DNA of 64,000 nucleotides from an uncultured Klebsiella sp. (lineage in GTDB: Bacteria; Chloroflexota; Chloroflexia; Chloroflexales; Roseiflexaceae). The stretch is from assembly GCA_964539815.1 (NCBI GenBank), contig CAZIKU010000001.1, positions 7,554 to 71,553 of the forward strand, given 5' to 3'. The notes under the pieces were generated by a model. It saw only the letters and a list, made by a program, of their open reading frames with translations. It was not told the DNA's origin and searched no databases. Positions within the stretch are counted from its first letter, which is position 1, and each line of letters opens with the position of its first letter. This document shows positions 3,389-23,832 of this stretch, in pieces. The position numbers and the translations under genes are program-made.

Positions 3389-3389
3389 G

Positions 3390-3464
3390 TGGTGGGCCGA
3401 ACAGGATTCGAACCTGTAACCAAGTCGTTATGAGCGACGTGCTCTGCCTTTGAGCTATCGGCCC
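3390..3464 (-). tRNA. tRNA-Met (anticodon CAU); could alternatively be a lysidine-modified tRNA-Ile2
   Basis: Hand-folded cloverleaf. Acceptor GGGCCGA/TCGGCCC, T-arm ACAGG-TTCGAAT-CCTGT, anticodon loop CTCATAA, CCA encoded. The G1-C72 pair argues against an initiator tRNA. Confidence 0.85.
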
Positions 3465-3472
3465 GTATGCAT

Positions 3473-3501
3473 ATGGTAGCATGTGCATGCATTGCTGGCA
3501 A
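3473..3501 (-). promoter_or_regulatory. putative sigma70-type promoter for tRNA-Met
   Basis: On the minus strand, TTGCCA, a 17-nt spacer and TACCAT end 8 nt upstream of the tRNA 5' end. Confidence 0.4.
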
Positions 3502-3523
3502 ATACCAGAATGTTAATTGTGGA

Positions 3524-4999
3524 TCAAGAGCAGCTATTTTTGACGAGTTTACAGCGGTCAAACAAATCTATGCTGCGTTCCCAAATGCGCTGCGGCAACG
3601 ACCATTGCCATTGCCAAAGTTGTGGCCATGTCAGCCCACGGCGTAGTTGTGTCTCGTTGTTGAATAGTGTGGCATTTGCAATTAGCCCCATATTCCAGCA
3701 AATAAACAATGCAATTACTACGCCTAGTACGGTGATTGGGATGCGCGATTGTAGTTTGCTGACGAACGTGGCAAGCCCAACGATGAATATCGGTGAGCAT
3801 TCAATGTAGCGCCGGAATCCGAATGCACCACTCAGATGCCATGTGGTGCCAAATGCACCATTAATCCAGACTTGCAGGGCAAACGCAACGAGCATCGCAC
3901 CACCAATCAATGGATTGCTCCAGACAAATATCCCCAATCCAATCAATGCCACGGCTATTATCGGACTCCACACGAGTGCTCCACGACTCCACGCGGGGAC
4001 AGACACTGGCTCGATGCCAACATTACAATAGGCAGCAGGTGAGGGATCGTAGTCGATTAGCGTATCTATCGCATGAGGGCTACATAAATTGAGTTTCCCG
4101 GAGACTTCTCGGGCAGGCAGTGGTGTCCCATTGACCGCCCAATATGCAACGAATTGTGGTGTCAGTATGGCGAGAAATACCACAGCACAAATGCCGATCC
4201 GGATTACAAGTGGTTTGTATTGCGTGGTATTTGCAGTTCTCCAGAGCTGCCACAAATTGAATGCCACTGTGATTGCAGGTAATGCCAACATGAGAATGAG
4301 TTGCTCACGCACCAGGTACAACATTCCCGCCGATAGGCCGAGTAGTGCCCAGGATCGGTAGGAGCTCTGGTGTTGCTGTGTTTTCCACCATAGCCAAATG
4401 AAACAACTGGTCACAAAAAAGCCGTTGGCGTGGGCGAACGGCATTTGGATCGTCATGTAGTATACAAGTGGTGTCGCGAGCCAAATACCGATGGTTGCTA
4501 GAGTTGCCGGGAGCGCATCAAACCAGTTGCGCGTGAGTCTGCGGCAAATGAGCAATCCGACAAACGCGTAGAGCGCAGACGCATAACACACTGCTCGTTG
4601 ATATGGCCAACTATAGCCATCTGCGGGGATATGGCGCGCAATACCTACACCGTGCAAACTTTGTAGCACGACATCCGTGGCAATAAACCACGGAGCCCAC
4701 AAGATGGCTGAACCAACCGGCGCAATGTTGCCGTAGAGACCGGTTAGCGGTCGGATTCTGTTTGGTTGTAGCAGACTCCGTTCAATGCCAGATTGCGGAT
4801 TAAGCTGTGCAAATGTTTCGTATTCATTTTGGAAGTCTACGTCATGATCTTTCCAAATCGAACGAACCCATGCATAGTACTGCACTTCGTCCGTGGCGTA
4901 GACACGAGGTAACGAGCCCACCAAGCAAACGCACATGATAACGCCGAGCACGAGGTGCCCGGCGTCCTGTATATACCTGTGAGCGAAGAATTGCCGCAT
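3524..4999 (-). CDS. polytopic GT-C-fold glycosyltransferase-like membrane protein (PMT/ArnT-like, GT39/GT83-type)
   Basis: About 12 hydrophobic segments. The first extracytoplasmic loop has YATDEVQYYAWVRS, which resembles the DE-x-(Y/H)-(Y/F) loop-1 motif of PMT/ArnT enzymes. The start lies 3 nt after the stop of the upstream secreted-protein gene. Confidence 0.6.
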   Translation of the reverse strand: MRQFFAHRYIQDAGHLVLGVIMCVCLVGSLPRVYATDEVQYYAWVRSIWKDHDVDFQNEYETFAQLNPQSGIERSLLQPNRIRPLTGLYGNIAPVGSAILWAPWFIATDVVLQSLHGVGIARHIPADGYSWPYQRAVCYASALYAFVGLLICRRLTRNWFDALPATLATIGIWLATPLVYYMTIQMPFAHANGFFVTSCFIWLWWKTQQHQSSYRSWALLGLSAGMLYLVREQLILMLALPAITVAFNLWQLWRTANTTQYKPLVIRIGICAVVFLAILTPQFVAYWAVNGTPLPAREVSGKLNLCSPHAIDTLIDYDPSPAAYCNVGIEPVSVPAWSRGALVWSPIIAVALIGLGIFVWSNPLIGGAMLVAFALQVWINGAFGTTWHLSGAFGFRRYIECSPIFIVGLATFVSKLQSRIPITVLGVVIALFICWNMGLIANATLFNNETQLRRGLTWPQLWQWQWSLPQRIWERSIDLFDRCKLVKNSCS

Positions 5000-5002
5000 T
5001 GA

Positions 5003-7411
5003 TTAGCGTTGTCCAAATGCAATAGGAGCGAACGATTTGTATGTGGTCATTGTAACACTTGTGGTTGTCGAGATTGCCGTGGTGCTCGCATTCCCTGCTC
5101 CATCCAAAAAGCGAACATATGTACAGTATGTGCCACTTGCTGCTGGTGTAGACAAGCCGTTAAGCAAGTTCCAAGACACACTCGGTGAAGATGGGTCAAT
5201 CGGTACTGCTCCCCAGCGTAAATCAGTAGAAGTATCTGCTGGGCAGCTGCCACTCTGCACGGCATTTGCGACCCAAATACCCCAGTACGGCTTGGAAGCA
5301 GTCGAATTATAGATGGTATCCGAGACACTTCCACCACTCAACGACAACGTACCTGTAAATGCACCACTAGATGCAGGAGTAAATGACAGTGATGGAGGTG
5401 TTGTTACACTAGGCGGTTCAACGTCCATAATGAGTGACCGCATTCCGCGTGTTTCACTATTAAGGGCACCGTCTGTCAACGTCAGCGAAATACCTACAGT
5501 ACTAGTGATTGCGTTCAATCCTACAGGGATGCTCTGATTGAGCATTGATGGTAGATACGTCACTCTGTTCCCGTTGACCTCAAATGTATTGAGCCCAGAA
5601 GGATCAGTGACGCCAGTGATTTTGAGAATGCCAGTCGATGAACGTGTGTGGCCTGAATCGGTATACGATGAACCACGCATACTGTAGGTGTCGAGATAGT
5701 ATGGTGTTGTGCTGGTGTTCGATAGTGTTGCGGTTGCCCCAACGGTCGCCACCGTGTCAACAGTAATACTTGCTGTCATCCATGAATCAACAGGGCGAAG
5801 CGAATCATCCAACAGCCGTACATGGATGTAGTTGAGCGCGTTTGCTGTGAGCCCAGTAACCCCAATTGTGCCATGCGCAACCGAGAAGGGCGCCACTTTG
5901 GTGTTATCAATTGTCGCTGGAGGAGTTGCACTGTTCGATGCAACCGCATAATACTTTGTGGCTGGACATGTTAGTCGCGTGTATATGGCGCCACCAATCG
6001 ATGTGTTGTTTACGAACGATGCACCAGATTCAAGTACCAAATTCGAGCGACATTTTGTTAATTGTCCCTTGAGCGGTGTTCCATAGGATGCGATATATGT
6101 GCCGTGAATCGAACTATTTCCTTCAAGGACATACACTGCAATAAGTCGTGTTTGGCCATTTACGTCCGCTAATGCAAGACTTGGACTACCAAAATGCGCA
6201 GGTGCCGTAGAAGGAAGGAATTTTTCGGACCACGTACTGTTGTAGTACAGAGCGACCTTGCCAAATCCACCACTCCCTGGAACTCCCGATGGAAGCTTGT
6301 ATGTGATACCAATACCGAATGCAATATTACCGTCTTCATCTACATACATGCTTGTGCCACCAAAGAGGTTTTCGAGGTTGATGAATGGTGAGAGTAAGGT
6401 TGGCATCGGACCATTGAGTCCACTCCACTGTTTGGTGGTCATATCGTAGCGCCATACCATGGTGGCACGTGATGAACCGCCCCGTTGGACAGAAAGTAAT
6501 GTGAGATATAAATTTCCATCTTCGCCTACGACTGCATGTGGTGTTTGGCACCCGTAGAGCGGTGATACACTTCCTGGGCCATTACACGGTATGTAACCCA
6601 CGCCGTTCTGAGTGATATTCAATGGGTTTTTCTCGACTTGTGCGACTGGGTCATAAAAGACCGCCCAAAGGCTCCCTTCGCTCTGATCTCCCATCACAAA
6701 GAACATGCCATTGGGTAGACCAACAATCGCGTCGTAGTTCTTGCCGACTTTCGAGCCGAAATTTCGCCAACTTGCAGTAATTGAAGCCATTGTTTTGACA
6801 GTTTCGATTGATAATACTGCATATGCAGGCACAATTGCTTCGCCACCGTTAAATGACGATACTGCGATTGCAATATGGTTTGTTGTTACCGCCAGTGATG
6901 TAAATGTGTGAAACATTTTCCCTGTATTTGTTGCAATCTTGCGTTTAAGCATCCCTTGGAACGGGCTGCTTGCAGGGGCGTCGTTGGGAATCATCAGCAA
7001 TCGGTAGTAGCCTGCCGAGCCTTTGCCGACAAATATATTCCCAGTTGCATCTGCCACCGCAAGTGCAGGGTTGTATTTAACGGTAAATGCAGTGTAGTTG
7101 TCTTCTATTGCGTCTTGATAGACTGCCACCACAGGACAAACGCCTTCACCGATACTGTTCGGGTCAACCACAATGATCGACGTGTATGCTTTGTTCACCA
7201 TGTCGGTATATGACGACACGGAACGTGTGATATACAGAAGTCCGTTGTTGTGGAGTACTACGGATCCACCCCACGTGATGAGGCCGTTATTCAAGCGACA
7301 GTTGGAGGCGCGAAGCAAATCATTGGCTGCAGCGGCGGGTTTTGGTTGACTCACGAACGTCGCTACTACCACGGCGAACAGACATATAAATCGTAATATT
7401 CGTTGATGCAT
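5003..7411 (-). CDS. secreted Ser/Thr/Asn-rich protein (putative beta-propeller N-terminal half, Ig-like/beta-sandwich C-terminal half); function unknown
   Basis: Signal peptide MHQRILRFICLFAVVVATFVSQPKPAAAA. Recurrent D-x-(D/T/N)-G-(N/Q) blade-like motifs: ADATGNIFV, GEDGNLYL, DEDGNIAF, ADVNGQTRL. The C-terminal 300 aa is very S/T/N-rich. GGAGG Shine-Dalgarno. Confidence 0.75.
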   Translation of the reverse strand: MHQRILRFICLFAVVVATFVSQPKPAAAANDLLRASNCRLNNGLITWGGSVVLHNNGLLYITRSVSSYTDMVNKAYTSIIVVDPNSIGEGVCPVVAVYQDAIEDNYTAFTVKYNPALAVADATGNIFVGKGSAGYYRLLMIPNDAPASSPFQGMLKRKIATNTGKMFHTFTSLAVTTNHIAIAVSSFNGGEAIVPAYAVLSIETVKTMASITASWRNFGSKVGKNYDAIVGLPNGMFFVMGDQSEGSLWAVFYDPVAQVEKNPLNITQNGVGYIPCNGPGSVSPLYGCQTPHAVVGEDGNLYLTLLSVQRGGSSRATMVWRYDMTTKQWSGLNGPMPTLLSPFINLENLFGGTSMYVDEDGNIAFGIGITYKLPSGVPGSGGFGKVALYYNSTWSEKFLPSTAPAHFGSPSLALADVNGQTRLIAVYVLEGNSSIHGTYIASYGTPLKGQLTKCRSNLVLESGASFVNNTSIGGAIYTRLTCPATKYYAVASNSATPPATIDNTKVAPFSVAHGTIGVTGLTANALNYIHVRLLDDSLRPVDSWMTASITVDTVATVGATATLSNTSTTPYYLDTYSMRGSSYTDSGHTRSSTGILKITGVTDPSGLNTFEVNGNRVTYLPSMLNQSIPVGLNAITSTVGISLTLTDGALNSETRGMRSLIMDVEPPSVTTPPSLSFTPASSGAFTGTLSLSGGSVSDTIYNSTASKPYWGIWVANAVQSGSCPADTSTDLRWGAVPIDPSSPSVSWNLLNGLSTPAASGTYCTYVRFLDGAGNASTTAISTTTSVTMTTYKSFAPIAFGQR

Positions 7412-7532
7412 AATTTCCTCGCTTATCCCTCCATTTCATCATACTCTAGGGAAGTATGTGAATTAAATAGCTCTTTATGAGCGCTATCTGATGTCTATCT
7501 GATATCTGTGACGATAAACACATGCATATTGT

Positions 7533-8321
7533 TCACACTGGCGGTCGTTGGAATATAGCCAGAAGCATTGAACGACTGCTCGGAATGACTTTCGTCACAA
7601 TAGAAATTAGTGCTTTAGCTACCCAACGATGAGGTGCCTGGAAGAGTCGTTTGGTTTCGAGACCGACTGGTTCATAGGCCGCGATAAACTCCTTGCTAGT
7701 GACTGTGTAGCCACATTGTGCGCTTAGCCATTCTAGTTGCGCCATACTGAATAGTCGACTATGCGTGTAATAACGGGCATCATGCCGTAGCAATGCCCAG
7801 CGTTGGAATTCTGCGTCGTGATCAAATGGTCGCATCAGCACCACATCAAAGAGTGTGCGTAAACGACTTTTGAAGTAAAACTGGTTGGGCGTACTTATGC
7901 ATAGATATCCACCAGGAGCGAGCAAACGATAGAAGGTTTCCAGTGCTTCAAGTGGTGGATTCGCCAAGTGTTCGATGACTTCCGAGAATACGATAATATC
8001 GAAGCTACCATCTGCATATGGAGGTGCTTCGATGTCAATATTCCATCTGCGTACTTCTACTCCGAGACGTTGCCAGACCTCGGTGCGATGTTCTGGGAAT
8101 AAGTCAGTCCCCGACACTGAAAAGCCAGCGTGGACGAGCATTTCGGTGAATTGTCCTGGATTCACGCCGATTTCCAAGACGCGTTTGCCAGGGAGCGCTA
8201 TAATCGCTGCCAACATTGCGGTAAAACGGAAGCGGTGATAGCGATAGTATTCACTTTTGTGTTCAGGTGTGTTATTCGGATACGCACGGACAATATCTGC
8301 TGCACGTTGATAATTCGACAT
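7533..8321 (-). CDS. class I SAM-dependent methyltransferase
   Basis: VLEIGVNPG motif I and FDIIVFSEVIEHL motif. I chose the start at 8321 (GGAG 5 nt upstream, 8 nt after the upstream stop) rather than the ORF-track start at 8354. Confidence 0.8.
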   Translation of the reverse strand: MSNYQRAADIVRAYPNNTPEHKSEYYRYHRFRFTAMLAAIIALPGKRVLEIGVNPGQFTEMLVHAGFSVSGTDLFPEHRTEVWQRLGVEVRRWNIDIEAPPYADGSFDIIVFSEVIEHLANPPLEALETFYRLLAPGGYLCISTPNQFYFKSRLRTLFDVVLMRPFDHDAEFQRWALLRHDARYYTHSRLFSMAQLEWLSAQCGYTVTSKEFIAAYEPVGLETKRLFQAPHRWVAKALISIVTKVIPSSRSMLLAIFQRPPV

Positions 8322-8329
8322 ACCCGCTC

Positions 8330-9559
8330 CTATAATTCCAGTGCGCGACGACAAATCGCCACCAATTCTGACGCACGATTACGATAGGTATGTGGTGCCA
8401 CGGCCTGTAACCCTGCAGTTGCATATGATTGACATAAATCTGGGTTATTCAACAAATTCGTGAGCTGTTTTGTCAACGACGATTCGTCCCCACGCACGAA
8501 TGTGCATGCGCCATTCTCACCAATGATCTCGCGTAATGCGGGCATGTCAGGACATATCACTACACGTCCGGTGGCGAGATATTCGAATAATTTGAGTGGT
8601 GATGCGGTTTCATCAGTCACGGTATCTGGTATCGCCAAAATAGTGCTGGCTCGGAGATACTCCGCTACCGTGGTTTGTGGGACAACCCCGACAAATGTGA
8701 CCAAGTCTGTGATATTGAGTGACGCTACTAATTGACGTAACTCCAGGACTTCTTGTGTTCGGCCACCAATAAAAATGAGACGCGTGTGCTGGCGCACCTG
8801 AGGCGCAAGTCGTGCGAATGCTCGTACCAATAGATCTAGTCGACGATAAGCAAATGTCAACCCTGCATAGGTAATGACATTGATGTCTGATGCAATGCCC
8901 AACGCTTGGCGTGATTCATTCATGTTGCCTGGTGTGTAGAGTGCATCATTATATGCATCAGGCAGGATATCAACGTGCTGCGAATCTCGTAACGTTTCGC
9001 GAGCGAGCAGTGTACGAAACGCCTGCGTCAACGATACGAGCCGTTTGGGCTTGGATATTGTGATGTCATCGATGCGACGCACCAACGATTGTGCCCATGA
9101 TTCCTTTGGTCGAGAGTGATTTGTATGCTCTAAATGATGGACTTCGTAGACTACTTGTGCACCGCACCATCGTGTCGCATACAAAGAAAACCAGTACGCA
9201 CATATAACTTCACGCACATAGATGACATCGATTCGTGCGCCACGCCATTTACGCCAGCGCATTATCCACAGCACTAACCAAGCGAAGACGCTACGCTCTA
9301 GGTAATACCACAACGTCGATTTATATAGCCGCGATAAACGACCAATGCCAATACGTGGCAAGTAGTTGACACCTAATTCATCGAATGGATTGGCTTCACG
9401 TGTCATGCGTGGGATGAAAATTTGCGTGTCTGGGGCAATCGCTTTGAGTTCTCGCAATGTGGAATACGTTTGTACCGCATTCGCAGAGGCTAACGTCAAG
9501 CTAGTGGGATATGCAATGTAATAAATTGTCGGTGATTGTGAATGCTTGTCTATTTGCAT
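8330..9559 (-). CDS. glycosyltransferase, GT4/GT-B fold (group 1)
   Basis: C-terminal GT-B half with TASPLKLFEYLATGRVVICPD. 409 aa. Overlaps the upstream GT gene by 10 nt. Confidence 0.75.
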   Translation of the reverse strand: MQIDKHSQSPTIYYIAYPTSLTLASANAVQTYSTLRELKAIAPDTQIFIPRMTREANPFDELGVNYLPRIGIGRLSRLYKSTLWYYLERSVFAWLVLWIMRWRKWRGARIDVIYVREVICAYWFSLYATRWCGAQVVYEVHHLEHTNHSRPKESWAQSLVRRIDDITISKPKRLVSLTQAFRTLLARETLRDSQHVDILPDAYNDALYTPGNMNESRQALGIASDINVITYAGLTFAYRRLDLLVRAFARLAPQVRQHTRLIFIGGRTQEVLELRQLVASLNITDLVTFVGVVPQTTVAEYLRASTILAIPDTVTDETASPLKLFEYLATGRVVICPDMPALREIIGENGACTFVRGDESSLTKQLTNLLNNPDLCQSYATAGLQAVAPHTYRNRASELVAICRRALEL

Positions 9560-10779
9560 AAACCATGTTCCCGATACGTAGCTAAGAGATCATCAGCGAT
9601 TTTGCTGGCACGAAAGTCTTCGGCAAATGCTGGGCAACGTGCTTGTAATGTGCTGTAGCGAGCGAGTGCCCGTGTGATACCTGCTGCAAGCGACGCGGCA
9701 TCTTGCGGCTCGACCACTTCACCACAATCTGCGTCTTTGACGTAATCGCTCGCACCGGTGGTGCGCGTGACAACGGGAGGAGTGCCGACTGCGGTGGCTT
9801 CGATTACCACACGACTGAATGATTCTGCCACAGAAGGGATTACCGCTATATCACACCCCGCCATGTATTCTGCAGCTTGATGGTGCGCTACCCCGCCAAT
9901 TTGATGGACACGATCTGCCACACCGAGTGCCACCGCACGCTGTTGCAAGTACGCACCATAATCGCCGAACTTTGCAGTGCTCCGATTGCCACCCACAATG
10001 ACAGCATGCGCATCAATTCCTTGTGCGATGAGCGACGGTAATGCTTCGACGAGGTATTCTATGCCTTTGAACGGATGCAGCCGATTGAGGCTGAGTATCA
10101 ATGTTGCTTGTGGATTCCACCCATGACGTGCACAGATTTGGGCACGTGACGTGTGGCGAAACGAATCACTATCGACGCCATGTGGTGGGTATGTTGGTTC
10201 TGTAATGTTGTAGGGGATTGCGACGACATTACTCGGTGGTGCGTTATATGTTGCGACGACAAGTGTGGCTATCTGACGTGAATCTGCGCGTACAAGATTG
10301 GCATGACTAACAACCCAACGAACCGCTTGGCGTACAAACCAATTGCGTGCATACCCATAATCAAAGGCAGGAACGGCCATCACATCAGCACCGGGTAATG
10401 TGACAGCCACAGGTGTGTGATCGTTTCGCGCAAGCATGACAATAAGTCCGAGTGGAAATGAGGTTTCGATATGAATCAAGTCATAATGCTGGCGTGTCAA
10501 TAATACACGAAAGCCTTGCCATGCACCAAACAAATACGGATAACCCGTCAACCAGCCTAGTACACGGTTGGCTAATTTATCGAACAATGTGCTCGAGGTT
10601 GGAATATGCTGTACTGTGATGTCGTCCATGACGAACGTGCTGATTTGATGCTCGCGTGACGAGAGTGACGCAACGTGTGTCTCATGTCCTTGTGCATTCC
10701 AATGTGCAATCACTTCGGTGTGCATCAGGTTTCCCACGGCATCTTTGTCGTATCGTGGGATGCAATACAGAATCCGCAT
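9550..10779 (-). CDS. glycosyltransferase, GT4 family
   Basis: PSVAESFSRVVIEATAVGTPPVV (E-x7-E motif). The MRILYCIPRY N-terminus is typical of GT4. Confidence 0.85.
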   Translation of the reverse strand: MRILYCIPRYDKDAVGNLMHTEVIAHWNAQGHETHVASLSSREHQISTFVMDDITVQHIPTSSTLFDKLANRVLGWLTGYPYLFGAWQGFRVLLTRQHYDLIHIETSFPLGLIVMLARNDHTPVAVTLPGADVMAVPAFDYGYARNWFVRQAVRWVVSHANLVRADSRQIATLVVATYNAPPSNVVAIPYNITEPTYPPHGVDSDSFRHTSRAQICARHGWNPQATLILSLNRLHPFKGIEYLVEALPSLIAQGIDAHAVIVGGNRSTAKFGDYGAYLQQRAVALGVADRVHQIGGVAHHQAAEYMAGCDIAVIPSVAESFSRVVIEATAVGTPPVVTRTTGASDYVKDADCGEVVEPQDAASLAAGITRALARYSTLQARCPAFAEDFRASKIADDLLATYREHGLCK

Positions 10780-10822
10780 GAGTTATCCCTTAGTACTATT
10801 GATTGTAGTATATCATGGATTT

Positions 10823-12025: not shown

Positions 12026-12026
12026 C

Positions 12027-14779: not shown

Positions 14780-15642
14780 CAGGAATCTTTCGTGAGTGCA
14801 AGCTCGAACATGCCCACGTACCAGGCTCGTTGCACTTTGTAGGCAACATATTCCAGGCCAAGTGCGCGAAGGAGCGCACGAATTCGTTGTCGACTGCTCC
14901 TTTTGCTGACGAAGTGTCCGCTTTGCAGTGCGACTTCGTTCATATCGACAGTTGTGTACCCAGTCTGCTTGGCAAGTGCCACAAATTCTGGGTAGTCAAA
15001 GTAGTGCATGGTGCTGAGGCGTTGCATGTCGTTGAAGCGTGCGTTTTCTTTGCTGCGCCCACGGCGTGCAATATACCATTCTGCCAGAGCACGTGGCCAC
15101 CAGTTGATGCTCGGGATGTGATAATGCGGATCTATCCAGGCACGCCGATTGATAGCCGTCAGGAGCACGTGTCCACGTGGTTTCAGGACACGATGAATTT
15201 CACGCAGAACCTGTGTAGGATGTTGTACGTGTTCAAGGACATCCCAACAGACGACTGCATCAAATTGTGCGTCTGCAAAAGGTAAATTCTCACCTGCGGC
15301 ATTCACAATGGGAAGTGAGAGTTGATAGCGATCTGCACGCAGTTGAATGATTTCGCAGTACGGCATATTAAATTCAGAGACGAACACATGTGCCCCGTGC
15401 AATGCACTCGCTACGGCGAAGCCTCCCATGCCGGCACCAAGGTCGAGGATGCGCAACCCGCGTATCGACCCAACAAATTGTTCGATTTGTGCGATGCGTT
15501 CTGCTTGATAGCGTTCCTGGTAGAGACGGCGCTCACGCCATGTGGCATAGTCGCGGCGCCATGTCATATGTGCCAACCAAGGGTCGATGGCATCTGCTAA
15601 GGCATCGATCGAGTGTACAGCGGCTTGATCGAAATTATTCAT
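14779..15642 (-). CDS. class I SAM-dependent methyltransferase
   Basis: ILDLGAGMGGF motif I and FDAVVCWDVLEHV motif. 4-nt overlap with the upstream gene. Confidence 0.85.
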   Translation of the reverse strand: MNNFDQAAVHSIDALADAIDPWLAHMTWRRDYATWRERRLYQERYQAERIAQIEQFVGSIRGLRILDLGAGMGGFAVASALHGAHVFVSEFNMPYCEIIQLRADRYQLSLPIVNAAGENLPFADAQFDAVVCWDVLEHVQHPTQVLREIHRVLKPRGHVLLTAINRRAWIDPHYHIPSINWWPRALAEWYIARRGRSKENARFNDMQRLSTMHYFDYPEFVALAKQTGYTTVDMNEVALQSGHFVSKRSSRQRIRALLRALGLEYVAYKVQRAWYVGMFELALTKDS

Positions 15643-17984
15643 GGGATCACCAGTGGCGCGCGGTCAATGCGAATAATCCACAAATAGATTGCACTTGTAA
15701 GTGTATAGAGCATTGTAATTGTCACGAGGAGCTGACCACTCCAGCCACGCCGCCACCATTGACTTGCCACAATACCCCAGCAGACCATCATGGCCGGCAT
15801 CATATAAAAGATTTGCTTGTCAACCATCGGGAATCGATATCCTGCAAGCATGAACAATACCGACACACTAAACCACGCAGCAGCAAATGCCCAGAGAATT
15901 GGTTTTTTGGCTAGTAGCACAAACCCTGGGATGACGGTTATTATTGGGATGAAAATCCCGTAGTATAAATAGGGATTCAGCACGAAGTCGTAGCGTAGTG
16001 TGGTCACGAAATTCCACATATACACGGCAAAAGATTGCTGTGCCTCAGCAGTCGCGCCTGTATGCTCACTGTTCGGCTTGAGCAAATACGGAATGGTTCG
16101 TTCGATGATTGGTCCGATGTACTGCCCGTAGTAAATCAGTGTCGCAAGTGCGAGACCACCGTATACGACGAGTAGCATATACTTCACTTGGGCACGCAGT
16201 GGGTGATTGGGCATCAACCAGATGATGAGCACAAGGATAGTGACAAAGACGACGTGAAAGACCGCAGTGACGGTATAGATGAGCATTGAGACGATGTGCA
16301 GCCCAATCAGAATGCTGAACACCTTGCGATTGGGGAGTTTGTGCCCCCATGCCAACAATACCATGCTGGTCACGAGCGTCCACCACAATCCTGTGGTTGT
16401 CGGCGTATTGCCCCACGCATGCAGCAAGAACGTAACAGGAGTTACTGCATAGAGGAGTGCAGCGAGCAATGAAACTCGTTGAGTTAACCCACCGATGCGT
16501 GCAATGATTGCAATGAGCAATACACGTGACGCATCACCGATTGCATTGATAATCGTTGCGGATTTTTCGAGTGGCCATGGAAAAATGGCGAAAAGTAGCG
16601 CACTGAAGTGATAAAACGGAGAATAGGGAATCATTGGTCTGTTTTCGCCCCATTCCGTGATGGGCATCACCGATTCCGAAAATGCACCAGGGAGATAGAA
16701 TTTGGCGAAATCACCTGTTGATAGCATCTCACGCACCTTGTTCATGTGCCACTCAATGTCTATGGGGCGCATGATGGGATAGAGAATGCCACCACCTTTG
16801 AGCCAGATGCTGACAACAAAAAGTGCGATGAGTAGATTACGCATCTCTGGACTAAAGCTGAATATCTCATCACCCCACACAAATATGCGATAGCACAAGG
16901 GAATGAGCAATACGCTAACAGCAACTAATACTAGTAATTGTGGATACCACATTGCGAGATAGGCACGTTCCATACCCATTGCCATAATCAGCATTGTCGC
17001 GAACGTGATGCCTACACCGAGCATGGATAGCGACATCAAGTGTGCAGCTACAGCAATCAGGACAATAATGGCAATGACACTCGCTAACTGCCACGAAAGT
17101 GCGATGTCCCACCATGGTGTTGAAATAGGGGAAATGTGCATCGATGCCACGGCGATACCGAGTGTGCGTACGTCTTTGGCATTGCCACCCCATGTTGGGC
17201 TCTGCAGGTTGACGACCACATCGCCACGTTCGTGACCATCAGGTGGAATCAACATGTGATAGACACGAAATCCGGTTTGGGTGCTAGGAATCGTGCTAAT
17301 GAGCGCCTCATTTACCTGTACTTGTGCGGTAAATGGCTGATTATCGGGGTGTTGCACCAACATAGTGCTTTGTAAGTGCCACCATCCACCACCACTCCCA
17401 TAGAAATTAACCTTACCGTCGCCTTTGCTCCAGCGATACACGTTGGCATTGCTCAGCGATACGCGTGTGACCGTCAATGGGGGCGGAGTGAGTTTGTCAT
17501 CTGGGATCGTGGTGATACGGATAACCGACCCAGCATTCAATGTGATGGTGGTTGGAATGATGAATCCGAAATCTTGGAAACGACCGGTGTCTTTGGTGTC
17601 GAGAACACGCTTGTTATCAATAAAGACGGCGAGTAGTCGACGTGTGTACGCACTCGGTAATTCGTCGATAGTGAAGGTGATGGTGCGATATTTGGCTAAA
17701 TCTGGCGAATCTGGCACCGTGATGCGCCATTCGGCAGCATTGTACGGTACTGCCTCGACGTTGCGCGTTGGTTCGATAACGGCGTATTCACGGCTATGAA
17801 ATTCATCGAGCTTGAGGACCGTGCGTGGATACAAAAAATTAATCGTTTGACTGAGTCGCATGCTACTCAGAATGCCAAACAACAGACAACTGTATACGAT
17901 AATGATTCCGAGATGTCGAATCTGTATTTGTCGCAACCCGTTCATGGCCAACCCTTCAACGACTGTTACCTTGCCATTATACAC
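15639..17984 (-). CDS. large membrane protein: N-terminal anchor, about 270-aa ectodomain and polytopic core; GT-C-like (possible polyprenyl-phosphate-sugar-dependent transferase or polymerase)
   Basis: 781 aa. Hydrophobic anchor at about residues 25-45, then a beta-rich soluble region, then more than 10 TM segments. Loop motifs DIEWH...IPYSPFYH resemble the D...Y/YxP loops of GT-C families such as GT87. An alternative start at 17945 has better Shine-Dalgarno context. Confidence 0.5.
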   Translation of the reverse strand: MYNGKVTVVEGLAMNGLRQIQIRHLGIIIVYSCLLFGILSSMRLSQTINFLYPRTVLKLDEFHSREYAVIEPTRNVEAVPYNAAEWRITVPDSPDLAKYRTITFTIDELPSAYTRRLLAVFIDNKRVLDTKDTGRFQDFGFIIPTTITLNAGSVIRITTIPDDKLTPPPLTVTRVSLSNANVYRWSKGDGKVNFYGSGGGWWHLQSTMLVQHPDNQPFTAQVQVNEALISTIPSTQTGFRVYHMLIPPDGHERGDVVVNLQSPTWGGNAKDVRTLGIAVASMHISPISTPWWDIALSWQLASVIAIIVLIAVAAHLMSLSMLGVGITFATMLIMAMGMERAYLAMWYPQLLVLVAVSVLLIPLCYRIFVWGDEIFSFSPEMRNLLIALFVVSIWLKGGGILYPIMRPIDIEWHMNKVREMLSTGDFAKFYLPGAFSESVMPITEWGENRPMIPYSPFYHFSALLFAIFPWPLEKSATIINAIGDASRVLLIAIIARIGGLTQRVSLLAALLYAVTPVTFLLHAWGNTPTTTGLWWTLVTSMVLLAWGHKLPNRKVFSILIGLHIVSMLIYTVTAVFHVVFVTILVLIIWLMPNHPLRAQVKYMLLVVYGGLALATLIYYGQYIGPIIERTIPYLLKPNSEHTGATAEAQQSFAVYMWNFVTTLRYDFVLNPYLYYGIFIPIITVIPGFVLLAKKPILWAFAAAWFSVSVLFMLAGYRFPMVDKQIFYMMPAMMVCWGIVASQWWRRGWSGQLLVTITMLYTLTSAIYLWIIRIDRAPLVIP

Positions 17985-17996
17985 GGCAACGAACGG

Positions 17997-19790
17997 TTAG
18001 TCATGGAGATATGTCATGACACGTACCCACGCGGGTATATACATCACACAGAGCCATGCTGCAGTACTCGTCACTGCAAGGAGTTTGCCGGCACGACCTA
18101 TACGCCACATGTGTGTGAGTACCATCGCAGTTGGCAGTGCTAAAAATGGCACGACACTTATGCCCCAGCGTACGGTTTGCGTGTTGATGAGAAGCATGCT
18201 TGCAGAGAGGAGTGCTGCACCAACGCCTACGCGGACGACGGTACGATGGAGATGCGTGTTGAGCATGCCAATGCCGAGAAGTGCAATCAGCAAGAAGGCT
18301 GGCGGAATGACATTCGCAAGGCTGGCCATGCGCTGACCAAGGGGGATTACTGGCGGACAACCAGCGTATCCCGGTGCTTGACCAATCAACGCCGTATAGT
18401 TTGAGTAATACAAAAGCGTCAAACATATCGGAATCACGACGTATGGAAACATTCTATGCAGCGATAATTCACGTTTTTCATAGATGTTGAGTAAAACGAG
18501 AATGCCCAACATTATTACGAACGAAATGCTATTACCAGTATGTGCCAAAAGTGCTATTGATGCCAGTAGAATGCGCAGTCCTGTAGATGTACGCGGATCA
18601 AACCAACTAATGATTGCTATCGTTACGAGGCCGTGTGCGACCGCATTACTAATTTCGCCGGTATGGGCGGCACGTAGTAATGGGAAATTCATACTGGCAA
18701 GCACCACGAACCAAGCGTGCTGTAGTGGCATACGCTGAGCGGCGAATAATACACGCCCCATATACAATACGGCCACACCATTGACAACTATTGCACTTGT
18801 CAGCAACAGATACCGTATGGCATCAGGATGGGGCATTATCATGGCAAATGGTGCGAGTAGCACATACGCCATCGGAGGATACGGACTAATGTATGCGCCG
18901 GCTTCGCATGGTAACTGTGCGGTGAAAAGCAGTGAACCAGAAATGACTTGCTTGAGCATACGTACGTGCATGGCAATGTCTGAGGAGCGTAACCAGGGGC
19001 TCATCAACATAATCATTTGCATCAAACTTGTCATAATGATAATTTGTGCAACATGCCAACGTGTGCGATTGCGCCACCACAGTATGCCGCTGAGGAGCAT
19101 GCCTGACAACGTCAATGGCAATCCAATCGTCGTGTGAATGTGCACCCACTCTTGGAAGAAATAGTATGTACCAATGCTTAACAGAGCGCTAAAAACACTA
19201 ACGATTGGCATGCGCGTGAGTAACAACCAACTCCACCACAAGCAGACGACGAGCCACACAAACCCCAGCCCTGGCAGCATGCGTTGTAGCGGTGTAAGTC
19301 GGATCTGTGTAACGGCGATGCCTAATTGACGTGAATCATTTGCTGGTTGAAACGTATCAACGGTACTTGCAACCGTTGGGGAGTCGCTCTTGCTAGACTG
19401 CACCAACACATGGTACACACGAGCAGTGGTTTGAAATTGATGCGTGCCAATATTTGGCGAATGCCAGTGTATTGGCACAGACGGTGACGAGTTGCGCCCT
19501 GATGCATCGATGTGCAAAGAGGCGATCCACCAGCCAAATCCAGCATGCGGCCACGCGATATGCCAATCTGCGTGACTCCAGCGCAAGGCTGGGCCTTGTG
19601 ATGGAGTCCATGGTTGTGGTTCTGATGGCCAAAATCCAGTCAGGTATGGTGTGTCGTATTCGCGCAGGCCAGACTGGCGGTCGCCACCGATGTCAACGGT
19701 AACAGACTGAGGAATGTGCCCAAACATCCACGTTGCTAATGCAATATATACAAGCAAGACGGCGTATGGATGTTGTGTGACACGTTTCAT
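17997..19790 (-). CDS. large membrane protein, paralogous architecture to 15639-17984 (anchor, ectodomain and polytopic GT-C-like core)
   Basis: 597 aa. Shares DSRQLGIAV (versus DVRTLGIAV) at the end of the ectodomain. Also shares the DIAMH...SPYPPMAY loop motifs with its neighbour. Confidence 0.5.
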   Translation of the reverse strand: MKRVTQHPYAVLLVYIALATWMFGHIPQSVTVDIGGDRQSGLREYDTPYLTGFWPSEPQPWTPSQGPALRWSHADWHIAWPHAGFGWWIASLHIDASGRNSSPSVPIHWHSPNIGTHQFQTTARVYHVLVQSSKSDSPTVASTVDTFQPANDSRQLGIAVTQIRLTPLQRMLPGLGFVWLVVCLWWSWLLLTRMPIVSVFSALLSIGTYYFFQEWVHIHTTIGLPLTLSGMLLSGILWWRNRTRWHVAQIIIMTSLMQMIMLMSPWLRSSDIAMHVRMLKQVISGSLLFTAQLPCEAGAYISPYPPMAYVLLAPFAMIMPHPDAIRYLLLTSAIVVNGVAVLYMGRVLFAAQRMPLQHAWFVVLASMNFPLLRAAHTGEISNAVAHGLVTIAIISWFDPRTSTGLRILLASIALLAHTGNSISFVIMLGILVLLNIYEKRELSLHRMFPYVVIPICLTLLYYSNYTALIGQAPGYAGCPPVIPLGQRMASLANVIPPAFLLIALLGIGMLNTHLHRTVVRVGVGAALLSASMLLINTQTVRWGISVVPFLALPTAMVLTHMWRIGRAGKLLAVTSTAAWLCVMYIPAWVRVMTYLHD

Positions 19791-19812
19791 ATGCTGCTCG
19801 TAATTCGTGCGA

Positions 19813-21558
19813 TTATTCTACGGGGAGTTCATTGCGCTGTGCGAGTTCTCGCATAAATAGTTCCGCATAAATCCCTGTGCGTTCCATCAGTGCCTGGTGA
19901 TTCCCGTATTCTACGAGTGCGCCGTTATCAAGCACCATAATAGCATCGAGATGGCGTACAGATGATATTTTTTGGCTAACCATAATCGTTGTTTTGCCGG
20001 CGCGATAATTGCGGACACCGACCACGATGTCATACGCTGTCCGAGCATCGATATTCGAGAGTGCATCATCAAATAGCATTACCGGTGCATCGGTAATCAG
20101 TGCACGAGCAATGCCCAGGCGTTGTTTCTGTCCGCCCGAAAGCATAGTGCCGCGTTCGCCGATTAATGTGTCGAGTCCATTGGAGAGTTGGGCGATGTCG
20201 CGATCTAGGCACGAAACGCGCAAGGCGTCGGCGAGTTGTGCGTCACTTGCATCTGGTGTGCCTAGTTTGATGTTTTCTTTGAGCGTCATACTGAACAACA
20301 CGTGTTCTTGGGGAACGTACGCCATACCACTACGCAATGTTGCCAAATCAATCGACTTGGCATCGATGCCATCGAATGCCAGCAGGCCACTATCGGGATC
20401 ACGGAGGCGGAGCAGGATGCTCAACAAGCTACTCTTCCCTGCACCGGTCAGACCGACTACACCGATATGCTGCCCTTTGTCGATAGTCACACACACATCG
20501 TCCAATAATGCTTGTTGCCCATAGCGCCATGTCACGTGTTGTAATTCGATATGCCCAGCAGGGATGTGTTTCTGCGCATTTGGCTGATTGCGCACTTGTG
20601 GGACACGCTGAATCACTTCGCCAATACGTGCTGCTGCGGCACTCCCCTGTTGTAATCGCTCAAACGCATTGCTGAGTTGATTTGCCGCATTACTCAGCAA
20701 TCCCAAATAGACAATAAATTGCACATATTGGCCAATACTGAGTTGGTTGTTGATAATCAGGATGGCGCCATATGCAACTACGATGGTTGCTGCAAGACGT
20801 ACAACAAGTTGAGGAAGTGGTGAAATAGCACTTGAGTAGACTACAAATCGGATTGATTCGTCGGCGTAGTCGTTACTCAACTTGCGAAATGCATTGCTAC
20901 TGGGTTGTTCTTGTGTGTAAGCCGCCACCGTGCGTTGCGCCGTGATGTGTTCTTGAGCAAATGTCGAAATCGCCGCAAGGCGTTGTTGTACCACATTAAA
21001 GGCATCTTCAACGAAGACGGCTAATCGTGTTTGTGCTATCAGACTGAGTATCAACATCACGACGGTAACCACCGCAAGCGGTACACTCGTCATCGCCATG
21101 AGTCCACATCCGATGAACAACAAAAAAATCGCATGTATGGCCATCTGGAAGCCAGCGCTATAAAATCGCCAAATGTAAATAAAGTCACTCGATGCACGTG
21201 AAAGTAAATCACCTGAACCGAATTCTGCCTGAGTCGCTCGGTCAAATGTGAGAATATGCTTGTATAAATCTTGGGCCATGGTGTAACTGACACCTGCTGC
21301 CATCGTACCAGTCAACATGCGGAGCAGATAGCGGAATACTGCCAGAATGATGGTGAGTACAATAATCAAAAGCGCATATTTGATGAGCTCCCATTGATCT
21401 ATCTTCTTGAGGAGGGCATCAATTGCATAACCAAGTACAACCGGATTAAATGCACTCGCAGCAGCGCCGACGAAGGCATAAAACGTGCCAAGGATGAGCA
21501 GTCCACGATATGGTCGTCCGTATGGGAGCAACGTTCGCAATCCAGATGGTTGTTCCAT
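19813..21558 (-). CDS. ABC exporter, fused permease and ATPase (MsbA/type IV exporter-like half-transporter)
   Basis: N-terminal 6-TM domain. Walker A GLTGAGKSS, signature LSGGQKQRLGIARAL, Walker B VMLFDDALS. I chose the start at MEQPSG (21558), 2 nt after the upstream stop, instead of 21714. Confidence 0.9.
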   Translation of the reverse strand: MEQPSGLRTLLPYGRPYRGLLILGTFYAFVGAAASAFNPVVLGYAIDALLKKIDQWELIKYALLIIVLTIILAVFRYLLRMLTGTMAAGVSYTMAQDLYKHILTFDRATQAEFGSGDLLSRASSDFIYIWRFYSAGFQMAIHAIFLLFIGCGLMAMTSVPLAVVTVVMLILSLIAQTRLAVFVEDAFNVVQQRLAAISTFAQEHITAQRTVAAYTQEQPSSNAFRKLSNDYADESIRFVVYSSAISPLPQLVVRLAATIVVAYGAILIINNQLSIGQYVQFIVYLGLLSNAANQLSNAFERLQQGSAAAARIGEVIQRVPQVRNQPNAQKHIPAGHIELQHVTWRYGQQALLDDVCVTIDKGQHIGVVGLTGAGKSSLLSILLRLRDPDSGLLAFDGIDAKSIDLATLRSGMAYVPQEHVLFSMTLKENIKLGTPDASDAQLADALRVSCLDRDIAQLSNGLDTLIGERGTMLSGGQKQRLGIARALITDAPVMLFDDALSNIDARTAYDIVVGVRNYRAGKTTIMVSQKISSVRHLDAIMVLDNGALVEYGNHQALMERTGIYAELFMRELAQRNELPVE

Positions 21559-21560
21559 AC

Positions 21561-22316
21561 TTATGCTCGTGATGCCTGGGAAGGGAGAATGATGCGGGCC
21601 GTCATATACAAACTCACTACCACGTAGTACACAACATATGACAACGAAACAACCAACAACCATGGGCTGGGGGTGGGCATTTGCCACAACGCGATTCCAT
21701 AGATGATGGTGCACGCAGTAGTGTATATCAGCGTCACGCGTCTGAGGAATAACGTACGTGATGGATAGACATAACGAATAGGAATGAAAACTAACACAGA
21801 ACAGATGATGATGATAAGGGAAACAAGATCAGGGCTGAGATTCATCACTACTGCGTAGAATGCGATGACATTCCAGTAACTGGGAAACCCAAGGAAAAAG
21901 TGGTCTTCGGCGACGACGTGATAATCGTCTGTTTTGGCGTCGACGCGGCAGAACTGATACGCTGAGGCAATGAGGGGGAGCATGGCGAGAAACTGGCCGT
22001 ACATGCCCTCGGGTAAAAATCCGTTTTGCCATAACAACACAACGGGCGCAAACACATAGGTCAAATAATCGACAATGTCGTCGAGTCGACGTCCATCAAA
22101 CCAAGGGACGGTTTCACTCACTTTGAAGCGACGTGCGAGTGTGCCGTCAGTACTATCGATAAATACCGCAGCAAACCCATACCACAGCGCCATCACCGGA
22201 TTACCGCGCACCGATTCCATTATCATCAGCATGGCCAAGATTGCTCCGGCAGCTGTATAGATATGTACAAACACCCCAGCGATTGCCTGGAATGGTGAAT
22301 GCGTGGCTTGCCGCAT
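21561..22316 (-). CDS. CDP-alcohol phosphatidyltransferase, phosphatidylcholine-synthase-like subclass
   Basis: DSTDGTLARRFKVSETVPWFDGRRLDDIVD matches DG-x2-AR-x12-G-x3-D-x3-D. The x12 spacing is the one described for Pcs-type enzymes, whereas most family members have x8. About 8 TM segments. GGGAG Shine-Dalgarno. Confidence 0.7.
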   Translation of the reverse strand: MRQATHSPFQAIAGVFVHIYTAAGAILAMLMIMESVRGNPVMALWYGFAAVFIDSTDGTLARRFKVSETVPWFDGRRLDDIVDYLTYVFAPVVLLWQNGFLPEGMYGQFLAMLPLIASAYQFCRVDAKTDDYHVVAEDHFFLGFPSYWNVIAFYAVVMNLSPDLVSLIIIICSVLVFIPIRYVYPSRTLFLRRVTLIYTTACTIIYGIALWQMPTPSPWLLVVSLSYVVYYVVVSLYMTARIILPSQASRA

Positions 22317-22346
22317 GAGATGCTCCCTTTTGTATGAATTGCTACT

Positions 22347-23771: not shown

Positions 23772-23832
23772 ACGACATTCCTCCATGTATTTCTACATGG
23801 ATACCGTTGTTGCATCTGTCAGAGGTCCGCAT

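Follow-up and report, generated by a model that had tools for sequence, protein, structure and literature searches.

A gene cluster for a putative methylated cell-surface glycan in a freshwater Roseiflexaceae bacterium

Gene content and layout of the cluster

The stretch of DNA analyzed here (the window) comprises 64,000 nucleotides (nt) of contig CAZIKU010000001.1, from a freshwater bacterium of the Roseiflexaceae family. A preliminary description of the window had pointed out thirteen tightly spaced open reading frames (ORFs) on the minus strand at positions 3524-22316 and had read them as a locus for an envelope glycoconjugate. All thirteen ORFs are present where they had been placed, and the start/stop overlaps at 13130, 14779, and 15639-15642 as well as the 121-nt gap at 7412-7532 had been quoted correctly. 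The cluster most likely builds a methylated cell-surface sugar polymer. Its genes are listed below in coordinate order, with protein lengths in amino acid residues (aa).

3524-4999, minus strand: 491-aa polytopic protein, assigned through family-level matches as a divergent PMT_2/GT39-like GT-C glycosyltransferase
5003-7411, minus strand: 802-aa secreted protein (signal peptide, AlphaFold2 model)
7533-8321, minus strand: MT1, class I S-adenosylmethionine (SAM) methyltransferase (Methyltransf_23, Methyltransf_11)
8330-9559, minus strand: GT4a, GT4 glycosyltransferase with no E-x7-E motif (Glycos_transf_1)
9550-10779, minus strand: GT4b, GT4 glycosyltransferase with E319-x7-E327 (Pfam and motif scan)
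10823-12025, minus strand: GT4c, GT4 glycosyltransferase with E304-x7-E312, a member of the conserved core (Pfam and motif scan)
12027-13130, minus strand: GT4d, GT4 glycosyltransferase with E274-x7-E282, the most conserved GT4 of the core (Pfam and motif scan)
13130-14779, minus strand: 549-aa protein, assigned through transitive profile matches as a divergent MOP-superfamily (Wzx-type) flippase for lipid-linked glycans
14779-15642, minus strand: MT2, class I SAM methyltransferase, a member of the core triad (Methyltransf_11, Methyltransf_23, Methyltransf_25)
15639-17984, minus strand: 781-aa sequence-orphan enzyme with a predicted GT-C fold (AlphaFold2 model and Foldseek)
17997-19790, minus strand: 597-aa distant paralogue of the 781-aa protein (BLASTP and hhalign)
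19813-21558, minus strand: type IV ATP-binding cassette (ABC) exporter half-transporter, MsbA-like (ABC_membrane and ABC_tran)
21561-22316, minus strand: cytidine diphosphate (CDP)-alcohol phosphatidyltransferase, Pcs-like (PF01066 CDP-OH_P_transf)

The four GT4 enzymes (three with an E-x7-E motif), the two class I SAM methyltransferases, the ABC exporter, and the CDP-alcohol phosphatidyltransferase were confirmed by Pfam and NCBIfam searches and a motif scan. No Pfam or NCBIfam match was obtained for the 491-, 802-, 549-, 781-, and 597-aa proteins, even at E < 10. The labels that these five unannotated proteins had received in the preliminary description were inferences at the time and are now backed by remote homology and structure prediction.

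In coordinate order, the gaps between the thirteen genes are 3, 121, 8, -10, 43, 1, -1, -1, -4, 12, 22, and 2 nt, as computed with homologue-consistent starts. The longest-ORF starts of the ABC exporter gene, GT4c, and MT1 overlap the upstream gene implausibly, while an internal ATG fits the homologue lengths, and the true starts of these three genes probably give proteins shorter than the longest ORF. The corrected ABC exporter gene is 19813-21558 with 581 aa (633 aa in the longest ORF), the corrected GT4c is 10823-12025 with 400 aa, and the corrected MT1 is 7533-8321, where the ATG at 8321 gives 262 aa and the longest ORF reaches 8354.

It was found that the packed, co-directional run extends past 22316 to 24563 and thus comprises 16 genes rather than 13. 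The three further genes (22347-24563, minus strand) are those of ComEC (22347-23786, Competence domain), an ORF product of 112 aa, and a cupin of 131 aa that matches MannoseP_isomer weakly, and they are preceded by gaps of 30, 46, and -4 nt, respectively. Since the same packing continues to 24563, packing alone cannot define a functional unit, and placing a boundary at 22316 is an interpretive choice that has no mark in the sequence. GC content and GC skew are flat throughout the region and give no sign of a genomic island, an idea that was therefore rejected. A scan for promoter and terminator consensus sequences gave sites no commoner than in shuffled sequence. The sole long intergenic gap of the cluster, at 7412-7532, is AT-rich and has a strong GGAGGG ribosome-binding site before the gene of the 802-aa protein. 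This gap may hold an internal promoter for separate and higher expression of the 802-aa protein.

A conserved core within a composite locus

Is the gene block conserved in related bacteria? An alignment of the flippase was scanned against one genome per GTDB species, which yielded 125 loci, 80 of which were retained. The window proteins were compared with these loci by tblastn, and the presence counts given below are restricted to loci with enough sequence. Single loci are cited by L numbers. The titles of the retained loci mostly name Chloroflexales or some other rank of Chloroflexota, and five bear other organism names. The cluster is found at 67-80% protein identity in the loci L010, L019, L027, L030, and L024, under the titles 'uncultured Klebsiella sp.', 'Singulisphaera sp.', and 'Thermoflexus hugenholtzii JAD2'; these records are probably mislabelled or misbinned.

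I found that the block is indeed syntenic in relatives, in the form of a conserved core plus further modules. The locus is composite and not one 13-gene pathway. The conserved core consists of the 781-like gene, MT2, the flippase gene, GT4d, and GT4c, and its genera include Roseiflexus, Chloroflexus, Oscillochloris (O. trichoides DG6), Chloroploca, Viridilinea, and Kouleothrix. MT2 lies upstream of the flippase gene in 55 of 64 loci and GT4d lies downstream of it in 51 of 59, while the 781-like gene was found in 35 of 51 loci. GT4c accompanies the flippase gene in many Chloroflexales loci. The triad of the 781-like gene, MT2, and the flippase gene is kept in the deepest relatives (L007, L084, and L086) at 33-41% identity. 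In the deep relatives L001 and L006, the 781-like gene has a GT2 gene no more than one to three genes away (immediately downstream in L006). In other Chloroflexales, further genes of the GT-C clan (DUF2079, PMT_2 with TPR repeats, and DUF2298) surround the core.

The second module comprises GT4b, GT4a, MT1, and the genes of the 802- and 491-aa proteins, and it is present in the freshwater clade. A separate locus of Roseiflexus castenholzii encodes MT1 (62%), two large membrane proteins (one with an RWS/DNRDLG ecto-domain), an 811-aa secreted protein, and an orthologue of the 491-aa protein (48%). The 811-aa protein adjoins the 491 orthologue, and its relationship to the 802-aa protein concerns the C-terminal part of the latter (E 9e-7).

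One sublineage has a third SAM methyltransferase gene between the GT4 genes (17157-17984 in L002, and the same region in L017). The GT4b orthologue of this sublineage is 55% identical, as compared with 76-80% in other relatives. The extra methyltransferase and the divergent GT4b suggest lineage-specific variation of the glycan.

The 781-aa and 597-aa proteins

The preliminary description had called all three large membrane proteins GT-C-like. This reading now has support for the 781-aa protein by fold, for the 597-aa protein by hhalign, and for the 491-aa protein via a family that matches PMT_2.

The 781-aa protein has 46 detectable homologues among 5.8 billion cluster representatives, and the named ones all come from metagenome-assembled genomes of Chloroflexia or Roseiflexaceae. 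None of the 46 carries a Pfam domain. A PDB sequence search with the single protein gave no match, the family profile gave chance-level PDB matches only, and in all, the Pfam, NCBIfam, and PDB profile searches placed the protein in no described GT-C family. In hhalign comparisons of the 781 family with the PMT_2-like 491 family and with DUF2079, the probability was below 1%. Since no profile links the 781 family to these families, it is the fold that carries the GT-C assignment.

An AlphaFold2 model of the 781-aa protein was built from a 31-sequence alignment and has a predicted local distance difference test score (pLDDT) of 84.8 and a predicted template modelling score (pTM) of 0.82. The model has one N-terminal transmembrane (TM) helix, a double beta-sandwich ecto-domain at residues 46-286, and then about 17 helices. 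In a Foldseek search against the PDB, the membrane domain matched STT3, PglB, and AglB on top, followed by AftB, ArnT, AftA, and Pmt4. These GT-C matches have a probability of 1.0, E values from 5e-5 to 9e-3, and target-normalised template modelling scores (TM-scores) of 0.31-0.45, and at least five different GT-C families are represented. Apart from one SID1 match with a low TM-score, no transporter fold was among the top matches. The beta domain of the model matched the sandwiches of BcsB, a GH2 sugar-binding domain, and PNGase F, and it looks carbohydrate-binding. The Emb and AftD enzymes, which bear carbohydrate-binding modules (CBMs), are a comparable case, and such an ecto-domain would fit a glycan acceptor.

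The residues D409, W412, H413, E444, W445, H459, D484, R487, H522, W524, G525, and N526 are invariant in the 781 family. Of these, D409, W412, H413, E444, W445, and H459 cluster together with P450-P456 in a long outward loop after the helix 379-400. The outward-facing segment 401-456 is highly conserved, and the counterparts of D409, H413, and E444 in the 597 family are D271, H275, and E296. This loop may correspond to the first external loop of GT-C cores, which is the catalytic one, and its invariant residues D409, H413, and E444 may be equivalent to PglB D56 or ArnT D55. The 781-aa protein has neither a conserved WWDYG motif nor the C-terminal peptide-binding domain of STT3, PglB, and AglB. 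A WWD sequence exists at 291-293 (W291-W292-D293), where the Asp is not conserved in the family and the consensus reads WWxxxP. The soluble domain is N-terminal in the AlphaFold2 model, and the chain ends inside the membrane domain.

The 597-aa protein is 21% identical to the 781-aa protein over 467 aa in BLASTP (E 6e-5), and its hhalign comparison with the 781 family gave a probability of 98% (E 2.5e-13, 492 columns). It has the same membrane domain and the ecto-domain motifs of the 781 type (RWS, GxGWW, DxRxLG[IV]AV, and the D-I-x-x-H loop).

The beta-sandwich module recurs at the N- or C-terminus of many large polytopic proteins encoded in Chloroflexales glycan loci. It is marked by the motif RW[SR]W, and the N-terminal versions also have DxRxLG. 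N-terminal examples are the 781-aa protein (15639-17984), the 597-aa protein (17997-19790), L089 3973-6252, and L040 16310-18613, and C-terminal examples are L054 6404-8599 and L089 1784-3880. A 731-aa family that carries the module was found in 21 of 83 loci.

The flippase, the GT4 enzymes, and the methyltransferases

The 549-aa protein has about 12-14 hydrophobic segments, and it has 201 relatives among 1.84 billion protein representatives. Among 41 full-length relatives, 24 match PF13440 Polysacc_synt_3 (best E 1.6e-23), 16 match PF01943 Polysacc_synt, and 6 match MurJ. A PDB search with a six-member profile gave no match, while the family profile matched MurJ (7waw, E 1.1e-4) and a teichoic-acid flippase (9xzn, E 1.1e-3). 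Thus, transitive homology supports the earlier label of a Wzx/MOP-like flippase, and by the evidence of its relatives the 549-aa protein is a divergent MOP/Wzx-type flippase.

No GT4 enzyme or methyltransferase reached an NCBIfam equivalog cutoff, and all matches were far below it. The NCBIfam matches of GT4a are generic only. Those PDB sequence matches that GT4d has (MshA-like, PimB', and PimA) are weak and cover the C-terminal domain only. The GT4 enzymes also score weakly against the EpsE, HpsO, HpsP, and PEP-CTERM-associated GT4 models.

The 491-aa enzyme and the 802-aa secreted protein

More than 340 homologues of the 491-aa protein were found, including Rcas_2502 of R. castenholzii, which is annotated as GT39. 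The Roseiflexus orthologues are 48-50% identical and carry this GT39 annotation. PF13231 PMT_2 is matched by 21 of 42 aligned family members (best E 4.8e-7). The residues D37-E38, which belong to the sequence YATDEVQYY just behind the TM1 segment (16-34), do not vary among the 42 sequences of the family. Such an Asp-Glu pair in the first extracytoplasmic loop after TM1 is what I take to be diagnostic of the PMT_2/GT39-GT83-like family. A PDB sequence search with the single protein and with a six-member family profile gave no match. From these family-level relations, the 491-aa protein is assigned as a PMT_2/GT39-like GT-C enzyme.

The adjoining 802-aa protein begins with a hydrophobic segment ending in PAAAAN, a Sec-type signal peptide, in agreement with the earlier statement that the protein is secreted. 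Eight homologues were found. The protein has no Pfam match above noise, and a PDB search with the family profile gave chance-level matches only. Its AlphaFold2 model is of moderate confidence (pLDDT 64) and consists of an N-terminal beta-propeller at about 35-445 followed by C-terminal beta domains; the C-terminal region is beta-rich and Ser/Thr-rich. Foldseek matched generic carbohydrate-related propellers (the heparin-sensing domain of the hybrid two-component system BT4663, PL42 and PL24 lyases, and a sialidase). Since the pLDDT is moderate and the propeller matches are generic, the predicted likeness to lyases and sensors is a lead, not an assignment. The 802-aa protein evolves fast, with 29-72% identity where the adjoining 491-aa protein keeps 56-72%. 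It is possible that the 802-aa protein is a partner or a substrate of the 491-aa enzyme.

The CDP-alcohol enzyme and the ABC exporter

The best NCBIfam model for the ABC exporter is MsbA_rel (347 bits, below the cutoff of 780). For the CDP-alcohol enzyme, the five best NCBIfam matches are all phosphatidylcholine synthase models (up to 191 bits, with a cutoff of 440), followed by serine-type synthases, and no phosphatidylinositol (PI) or phosphatidylinositol phosphate (PIP) synthase model is among its matches. The genes of both proteins lie within 10 kb of the flippase gene in 12 of 12 loci of the freshwater clade and in 0 of 26 other Chloroflexales loci. Within the freshwater clade, the ABC and CDP-alcohol proteins are 72-90% identical, with 70-90% as the wider range for the exporter, as compared with 30-73% for the 597- and 781-aa proteins. 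Upstream colinearity reaches ComEC, the cupin, and an M14 peptidase, and the stretch with ComEC and the cupin is syntenic in this clade. Thus, the adjacency of the CDP-alcohol and ABC genes to the glycan genes looks like general genome colinearity in a shallow clade. The two genes are probably an adjacent lipid module outside the conserved glycan system.

In L003 (6407-8017), L004 (2712-4322), and also L022, an opposite-strand GH172 gene lies between the ABC exporter gene and the 597-like gene. The co-directional run is interrupted by this insertion precisely where the module boundary is proposed.

Search for priming, polymerase, and ligase genes

The preliminary description had recognized no priming enzyme, no Wzy/WaaL-type polymerase or ligase, and no nucleotide-sugar genes, and this absence holds for the ORFs that were tested over the whole window. 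Searches of the cluster and of the other large ORFs tested revealed no PF00953 or PF02397 primer, Wzy_C, WaaL-type protein, GT2, or nucleotide-sugar pathway. Primer, Wzy/WaaL-type, GT2, and nucleotide-sugar genes were likewise not found in the 10 kb beyond the 491-aa gene of the closest long relative. It had also been considered that a conventional primer and Wzy might lie just outside the cluster; as far as the data reach, none was found there.

No priming enzyme was found among the recurrent gene families of 83 related loci, and no Wzy/WaaL-type, GT2, or nucleotide-sugar pathway gene was found among these families either. Two sets of recurrent neighbours were considered as hidden primers and rejected, since proteins of 362-364 aa look like solute-binding lipoproteins and a 354-aa one is a spurious high-GC ORF. 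No Wzz match was obtained in the cluster, where only the flippase and the three GT-C-type proteins are polytopic; Wzy is very diverse and a functional analogue is possible.

Proposed pathway and its alternatives

From the gene content, folds, homologies, and synteny described above, I infer the following pathway, including its carrier lipid, the order of its steps, the donors and acceptors of the GT-C enzymes, and its product. The genes at 3524-19790 would form a flippase-dependent pathway specific to Chloroflexales. On the cytoplasmic face, the GT4 enzymes and the two SAM methyltransferases would build an O-methylated oligosaccharide on a lipid carrier, with the priming enzyme presumably encoded elsewhere in the genome. 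Primers are encoded apart in other systems as well, such as WecA for mycobacterial arabinogalactan and, commonly, TagO for teichoic acids. The 549-aa MOP/Wzx-type flippase would move the intermediate to the outer face of the cytoplasmic membrane. There, the 781- and 597-aa GT-C enzymes may polymerise, transfer, or extend the glycan, in place of Wzy/WaaL-type work, and the PMT_2-like 491-aa enzyme may act with or on the adjoining 802-aa secreted propeller protein. The genes at 19813-22316 (the MsbA-like exporter and the Pcs-like synthase) would be a neighbouring, more conserved membrane-lipid module that stands beside the glycan genes in one freshwater Roseiflexaceae clade only.

What is the product? 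I consider it about an even bet that it is a wall-associated, O-methylated heteropolysaccharide. This product is favoured because the core is order-wide and independent of the 802-aa protein, because the ecto-domains look glycan-binding rather than peptide-binding, and because a peptidoglycan-polysaccharide complex has been reported for Chloroflexota, namely in Herpetosiphon (Jurgens et al. 1989, as cited in PMC3368417). A literature search on O-methyl sugars in Chloroflexus walls gave nothing relevant, and the link to O-methylated wall sugars is thus drawn from gene content.

Several points weigh against this interpretation. The GT-C assignment of the 781-aa protein comes from one predicted model with moderate TM-scores (0.3-0.45), and its catalytic residues are guessed from conservation. 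The top Foldseek matches of this protein are oligosaccharyltransferases, which a protein acceptor would fit equally well. Both the MOP assignment of the 549-aa protein and the PMT_2-like assignment of the 491-aa protein are transitive through relatives, the window proteins themselves having no Pfam match. The window yielded no primer, polyprenyl-phosphate-sugar synthase, or LCP-type ligase, so that the start and the end of the proposed pathway are unseen.

The same machinery might serve protein glycosylation, in which a lipid-linked methylated oligosaccharide is flipped by the MOP flippase or a PglK-like ABC exporter, the GT-C enzymes move it (or single sugars) onto secreted proteins, and the 491-aa enzyme O-glycosylates the Ser/Thr-rich 802-aa protein. 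The Campylobacter pgl locus, with the GT4 enzymes PglA, PglH, and PglJ, the ABC flippase PglK, and the GT-C oligosaccharyltransferase (OST) PglB, is a formal parallel. This explanation would account for the OST catalytic subunits STT3, PglB, and AglB as top structural matches of the 781-aa protein, for the PMT_2/GT39-like nature of the 491 family, and for an 802-aa protein that is secreted, Ser/Thr-rich, and fast-evolving. The 3-nt spacing of the 802- and 491-aa genes and the recurrence in R. castenholzii of a secreted protein of about 800 aa paired with a 491-like protein lend it some support. However, a WWDYG-type motif is not conserved in the 781 family, and instead of a C-terminal peptide-binding domain the 781-aa protein has an N-terminal, CBM-like soluble domain. 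The core also exists in many Chloroflexales loci where no 802-like gene was detected within 10 kb, the ABC exporter is outside the conserved core, and neither a primer nor a polyprenyl-phosphate-mannose synthase was found in the window ORFs tested. Protein glycosylation is an unlikely but serious candidate.

A secreted or loosely attached extracellular polysaccharide (EPS), slime, or sheath polymer that is not linked to peptidoglycan and serves, for instance, gliding, filament cohesion, or a fibrillar layer seems rather unlikely. Several GT-C enzymes are unusual in EPS loci and typical of the elaboration of wall glycans and glycoconjugates, and an EPS product would leave them unexplained. No Wzy, polysaccharide co-polymerase (PCP)/Wzz, or other EPS-typical polymerase or export gene was found inside the cluster. 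GT4 enzymes, a Wzx-type flippase, and methyltransferases are nevertheless a combination typical of EPS loci, and the GT4 enzymes have weak matches to EPS-type models. The 802-aa protein has a propeller that is similar to polysaccharide lyases and could act on a polymer, although this likeness is of a generic kind and was drawn from a propeller modelled with moderate confidence. Cryo-electron tomography (cryo-ET) of Ca. Viridilinea, a core-carrying genus, has revealed a fibrillar layer outside the outer layer (PMC7332563), which would suit such a polymer.

The preliminary description had offered glycosylation of the co-encoded secreted protein as one reading, and its main reading was a phospholipid-anchored lipoglycan resembling phosphatidylinositol mannoside (PIM) and lipomannan (LM), with an anchor made by the CDP-alcohol enzyme, GT4 enzymes inside, export by the ABC or MOP protein, and extension by GT-C enzymes outside. 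The parts are co-directional and close (2 nt between the CDP-alcohol and ABC genes, 22 nt between the ABC and 597 genes), this arrangement is kept in the 12 freshwater-clade loci with enough upstream sequence, and the weak PDB matches of GT4d include PimA and PimB'. The logic leading from PgsA1 through PimA/PimB to PimE was nevertheless not borne out, since the CDP-alcohol enzyme is nearest to phosphatidylcholine synthases and not to PI or PIP synthases, since it and the ABC exporter are absent near the core in all 26 loci outside the freshwater clade, since the GH172 gene parts them from the glycan genes in three loci, and since the GT4 enzymes stay below the PimA and PimB cutoffs. That both proteins are much more conserved than the GT-C proteins, and that synteny runs on through ComEC and the cupin, also count against it. 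Nor did the domain scans of the ORFs tested detect a PI(P) synthase, a PimA/PimB-type GT4, a PatA-like acyltransferase, a Ppm1-like synthase, or a GT87/PimE-like (DUF2029) protein, as expected for a pathway to PIM, LM, or lipoarabinomannan (LAM). The lipoglycan is the least supported of the explanations and very improbable.

Returning to the wall heteropolysaccharide, a bolder form of it can be imagined. The triad of orphan GT-C (781/597), methyltransferase, and MOP flippase would be the core pathway for a wall-linked glycan scaffold of the Chloroflexales envelope, which has neither lipopolysaccharide (LPS) nor Bam. In freshwater Roseiflexaceae, this pathway would be functionally coupled to the Pcs-like synthase and the MsbA-like exporter. 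Taken together, the block would serve the biogenesis of the outer layer as a combined island for lipid and glycan, functionally analogous to, and evolutionarily independent of, the mycobacterial arabinogalactan/mycomembrane system. I regard this as a long shot.

Comparison with known systems

The logic of the cluster resembles those of actinobacterial wall-glycan systems and of three-component GT-C systems and borrows the flippase class of Wzx/Wzy clusters, but the features that define each of these systems are not all found. As in the actinobacterial arabinogalactan and LM/LAM systems (EmbA/B/C, AftA-D, and PimE), a cytoplasmic lipid-carrier stage would be followed by several extracytoplasmic GT-C enzymes, some with carbohydrate-binding ecto-domains. 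Those systems, too, have their primer gene apart from the main cluster, and the 781-aa protein matched AftA and AftB, among others, in structure. On the other hand, the GT-C proteins of the window have no sequence relation to the Emb, Aft, and PimE families, the ecto-domain of the 781-aa protein is N-terminal rather than C-terminal, and there are no genes here for the synthesis of decaprenyl-phosphate sugars. The cluster further differs in its MOP-type flippase, in methyltransferases that are integral to the conserved core, and in the adjoining phospholipid synthase, which is Pcs-like and not conserved with the glycan system.

Wzx/Wzy clusters for O-antigen, capsule, or secondary cell wall polymers share the combination of GT4 enzymes, methyltransferases, and a Polysacc_synt-type MOP flippase in one co-directional block. 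Unlike them, the cluster has no recognized initiating phosphoglycosyltransferase, Wzy, Wzz/PCP, or WaaL/LCP, and has three GT-C-type proteins instead. Three-component systems consist of a GT2 polyprenyl-phosphate-sugar synthase, a small flippase, and a GT-C (GtrA/B/C and ArnC/E/F/T; Kelly et al. 2024, PMC11127046). Outer-face GT-C enzymes beside a dedicated flippase, and the GT2 gene near the 781-like gene in L001 and L006, recall these systems, whereas the window has no GT2 synthase or GtrA-like small flippase, its MOP flippase has about 14 TM segments, and four GT4 enzymes imply an oligosaccharide and not a single-sugar donor. The Campylobacter pgl system is similar in its GT4 enzymes, its MsbA/PglK-like ABC exporter, its GT-C (the window counterpart has OSTs as its closest structural matches), and a secreted protein encoded alongside; it differs from the cluster in that the latter has no conserved WWDYG, no C-terminal periplasmic domain, no PglC-type primer, and an ABC exporter outside the core.

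What appears to be new is a sequence-orphan family restricted to Chloroflexales with a predicted GT-C fold and an N-terminal double beta-sandwich, a clade of MOP flippases missed by current profile libraries, and the conserved linkage of these two with a methyltransferase. The pathway logic of cytoplasmic glycosyltransferases, flippase, and GT-C enzymes is a recombination of known parts and is not mechanistically surprising.

Whether Chloroflexota have one or two membranes has been disputed for decades, and LPS genes and bamA are lacking (PMC7332563, PMC7203096). Cryo-ET has shown an outer layer of uncertain nature in Chloroflexus and Viridilinea but not in Roseiflexus (PMC7332563, PMC7203096). 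The literature searches made here turned up no account of a locus for glycan assembly from Chloroflexales. The order-wide gene set of the 781-like gene, methyltransferase, MOP flippase, and two GT4 genes is a genetic handle on this poorly understood envelope. The second module also occurs in the cultured R. castenholzii, and both sets are open to targeting, expression, and localisation. The orphan GT-C family and the MOP flippase clade matter for metagenome annotation as well.

Other genes in the window and in related loci

A second glycan module lies on the plus strand at 26122-32104, 1.6-7.5 kb from the end of the co-directional run. It encodes a membrane-anchored protein of 602 aa that carries a polysaccharide deacetylase domain, an ABC-2 (Wzm-type) permease of 571 aa that has about 290 additional residues at its N-terminus, an ABC ATPase of 405 aa, and a lipoprotein of 425 aa that contains an EIWNEPN motif and looks GH5-like. 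The ATPase is extended at its C-terminus by about 170 aa, as are those Wzt proteins that read chain-end modifications. A possible role of this module is the export of a methyl-capped polymer that the neighbouring GT4 enzymes and methyltransferases would make. No Wzm/Wzt orthologues were found near the core in other Chloroflexales, and the M14 peptidase and deacetylase genes are syntenic in L002.

Sugar-metabolism genes found elsewhere in the window are those of a GH32 fructosidase (34334-35719, minus strand), a galactose-1-phosphate uridylyltransferase (44186-45229, plus strand), a GT4/GT5 glycogen-synthase-like protein (48329-49537, plus strand), and a GH78 alpha-L-rhamnosidase (56693-59410, minus strand). 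None of these is a nucleotide-sugar pathway dedicated to the cluster. In Oscillochloris trichoides DG6 (L071), a pPIWI_RE Argonaute-like defence gene (2506-5427; pPIWI_RE_X, MID, and RNaseH) is located a few kb upstream of the glycan core.

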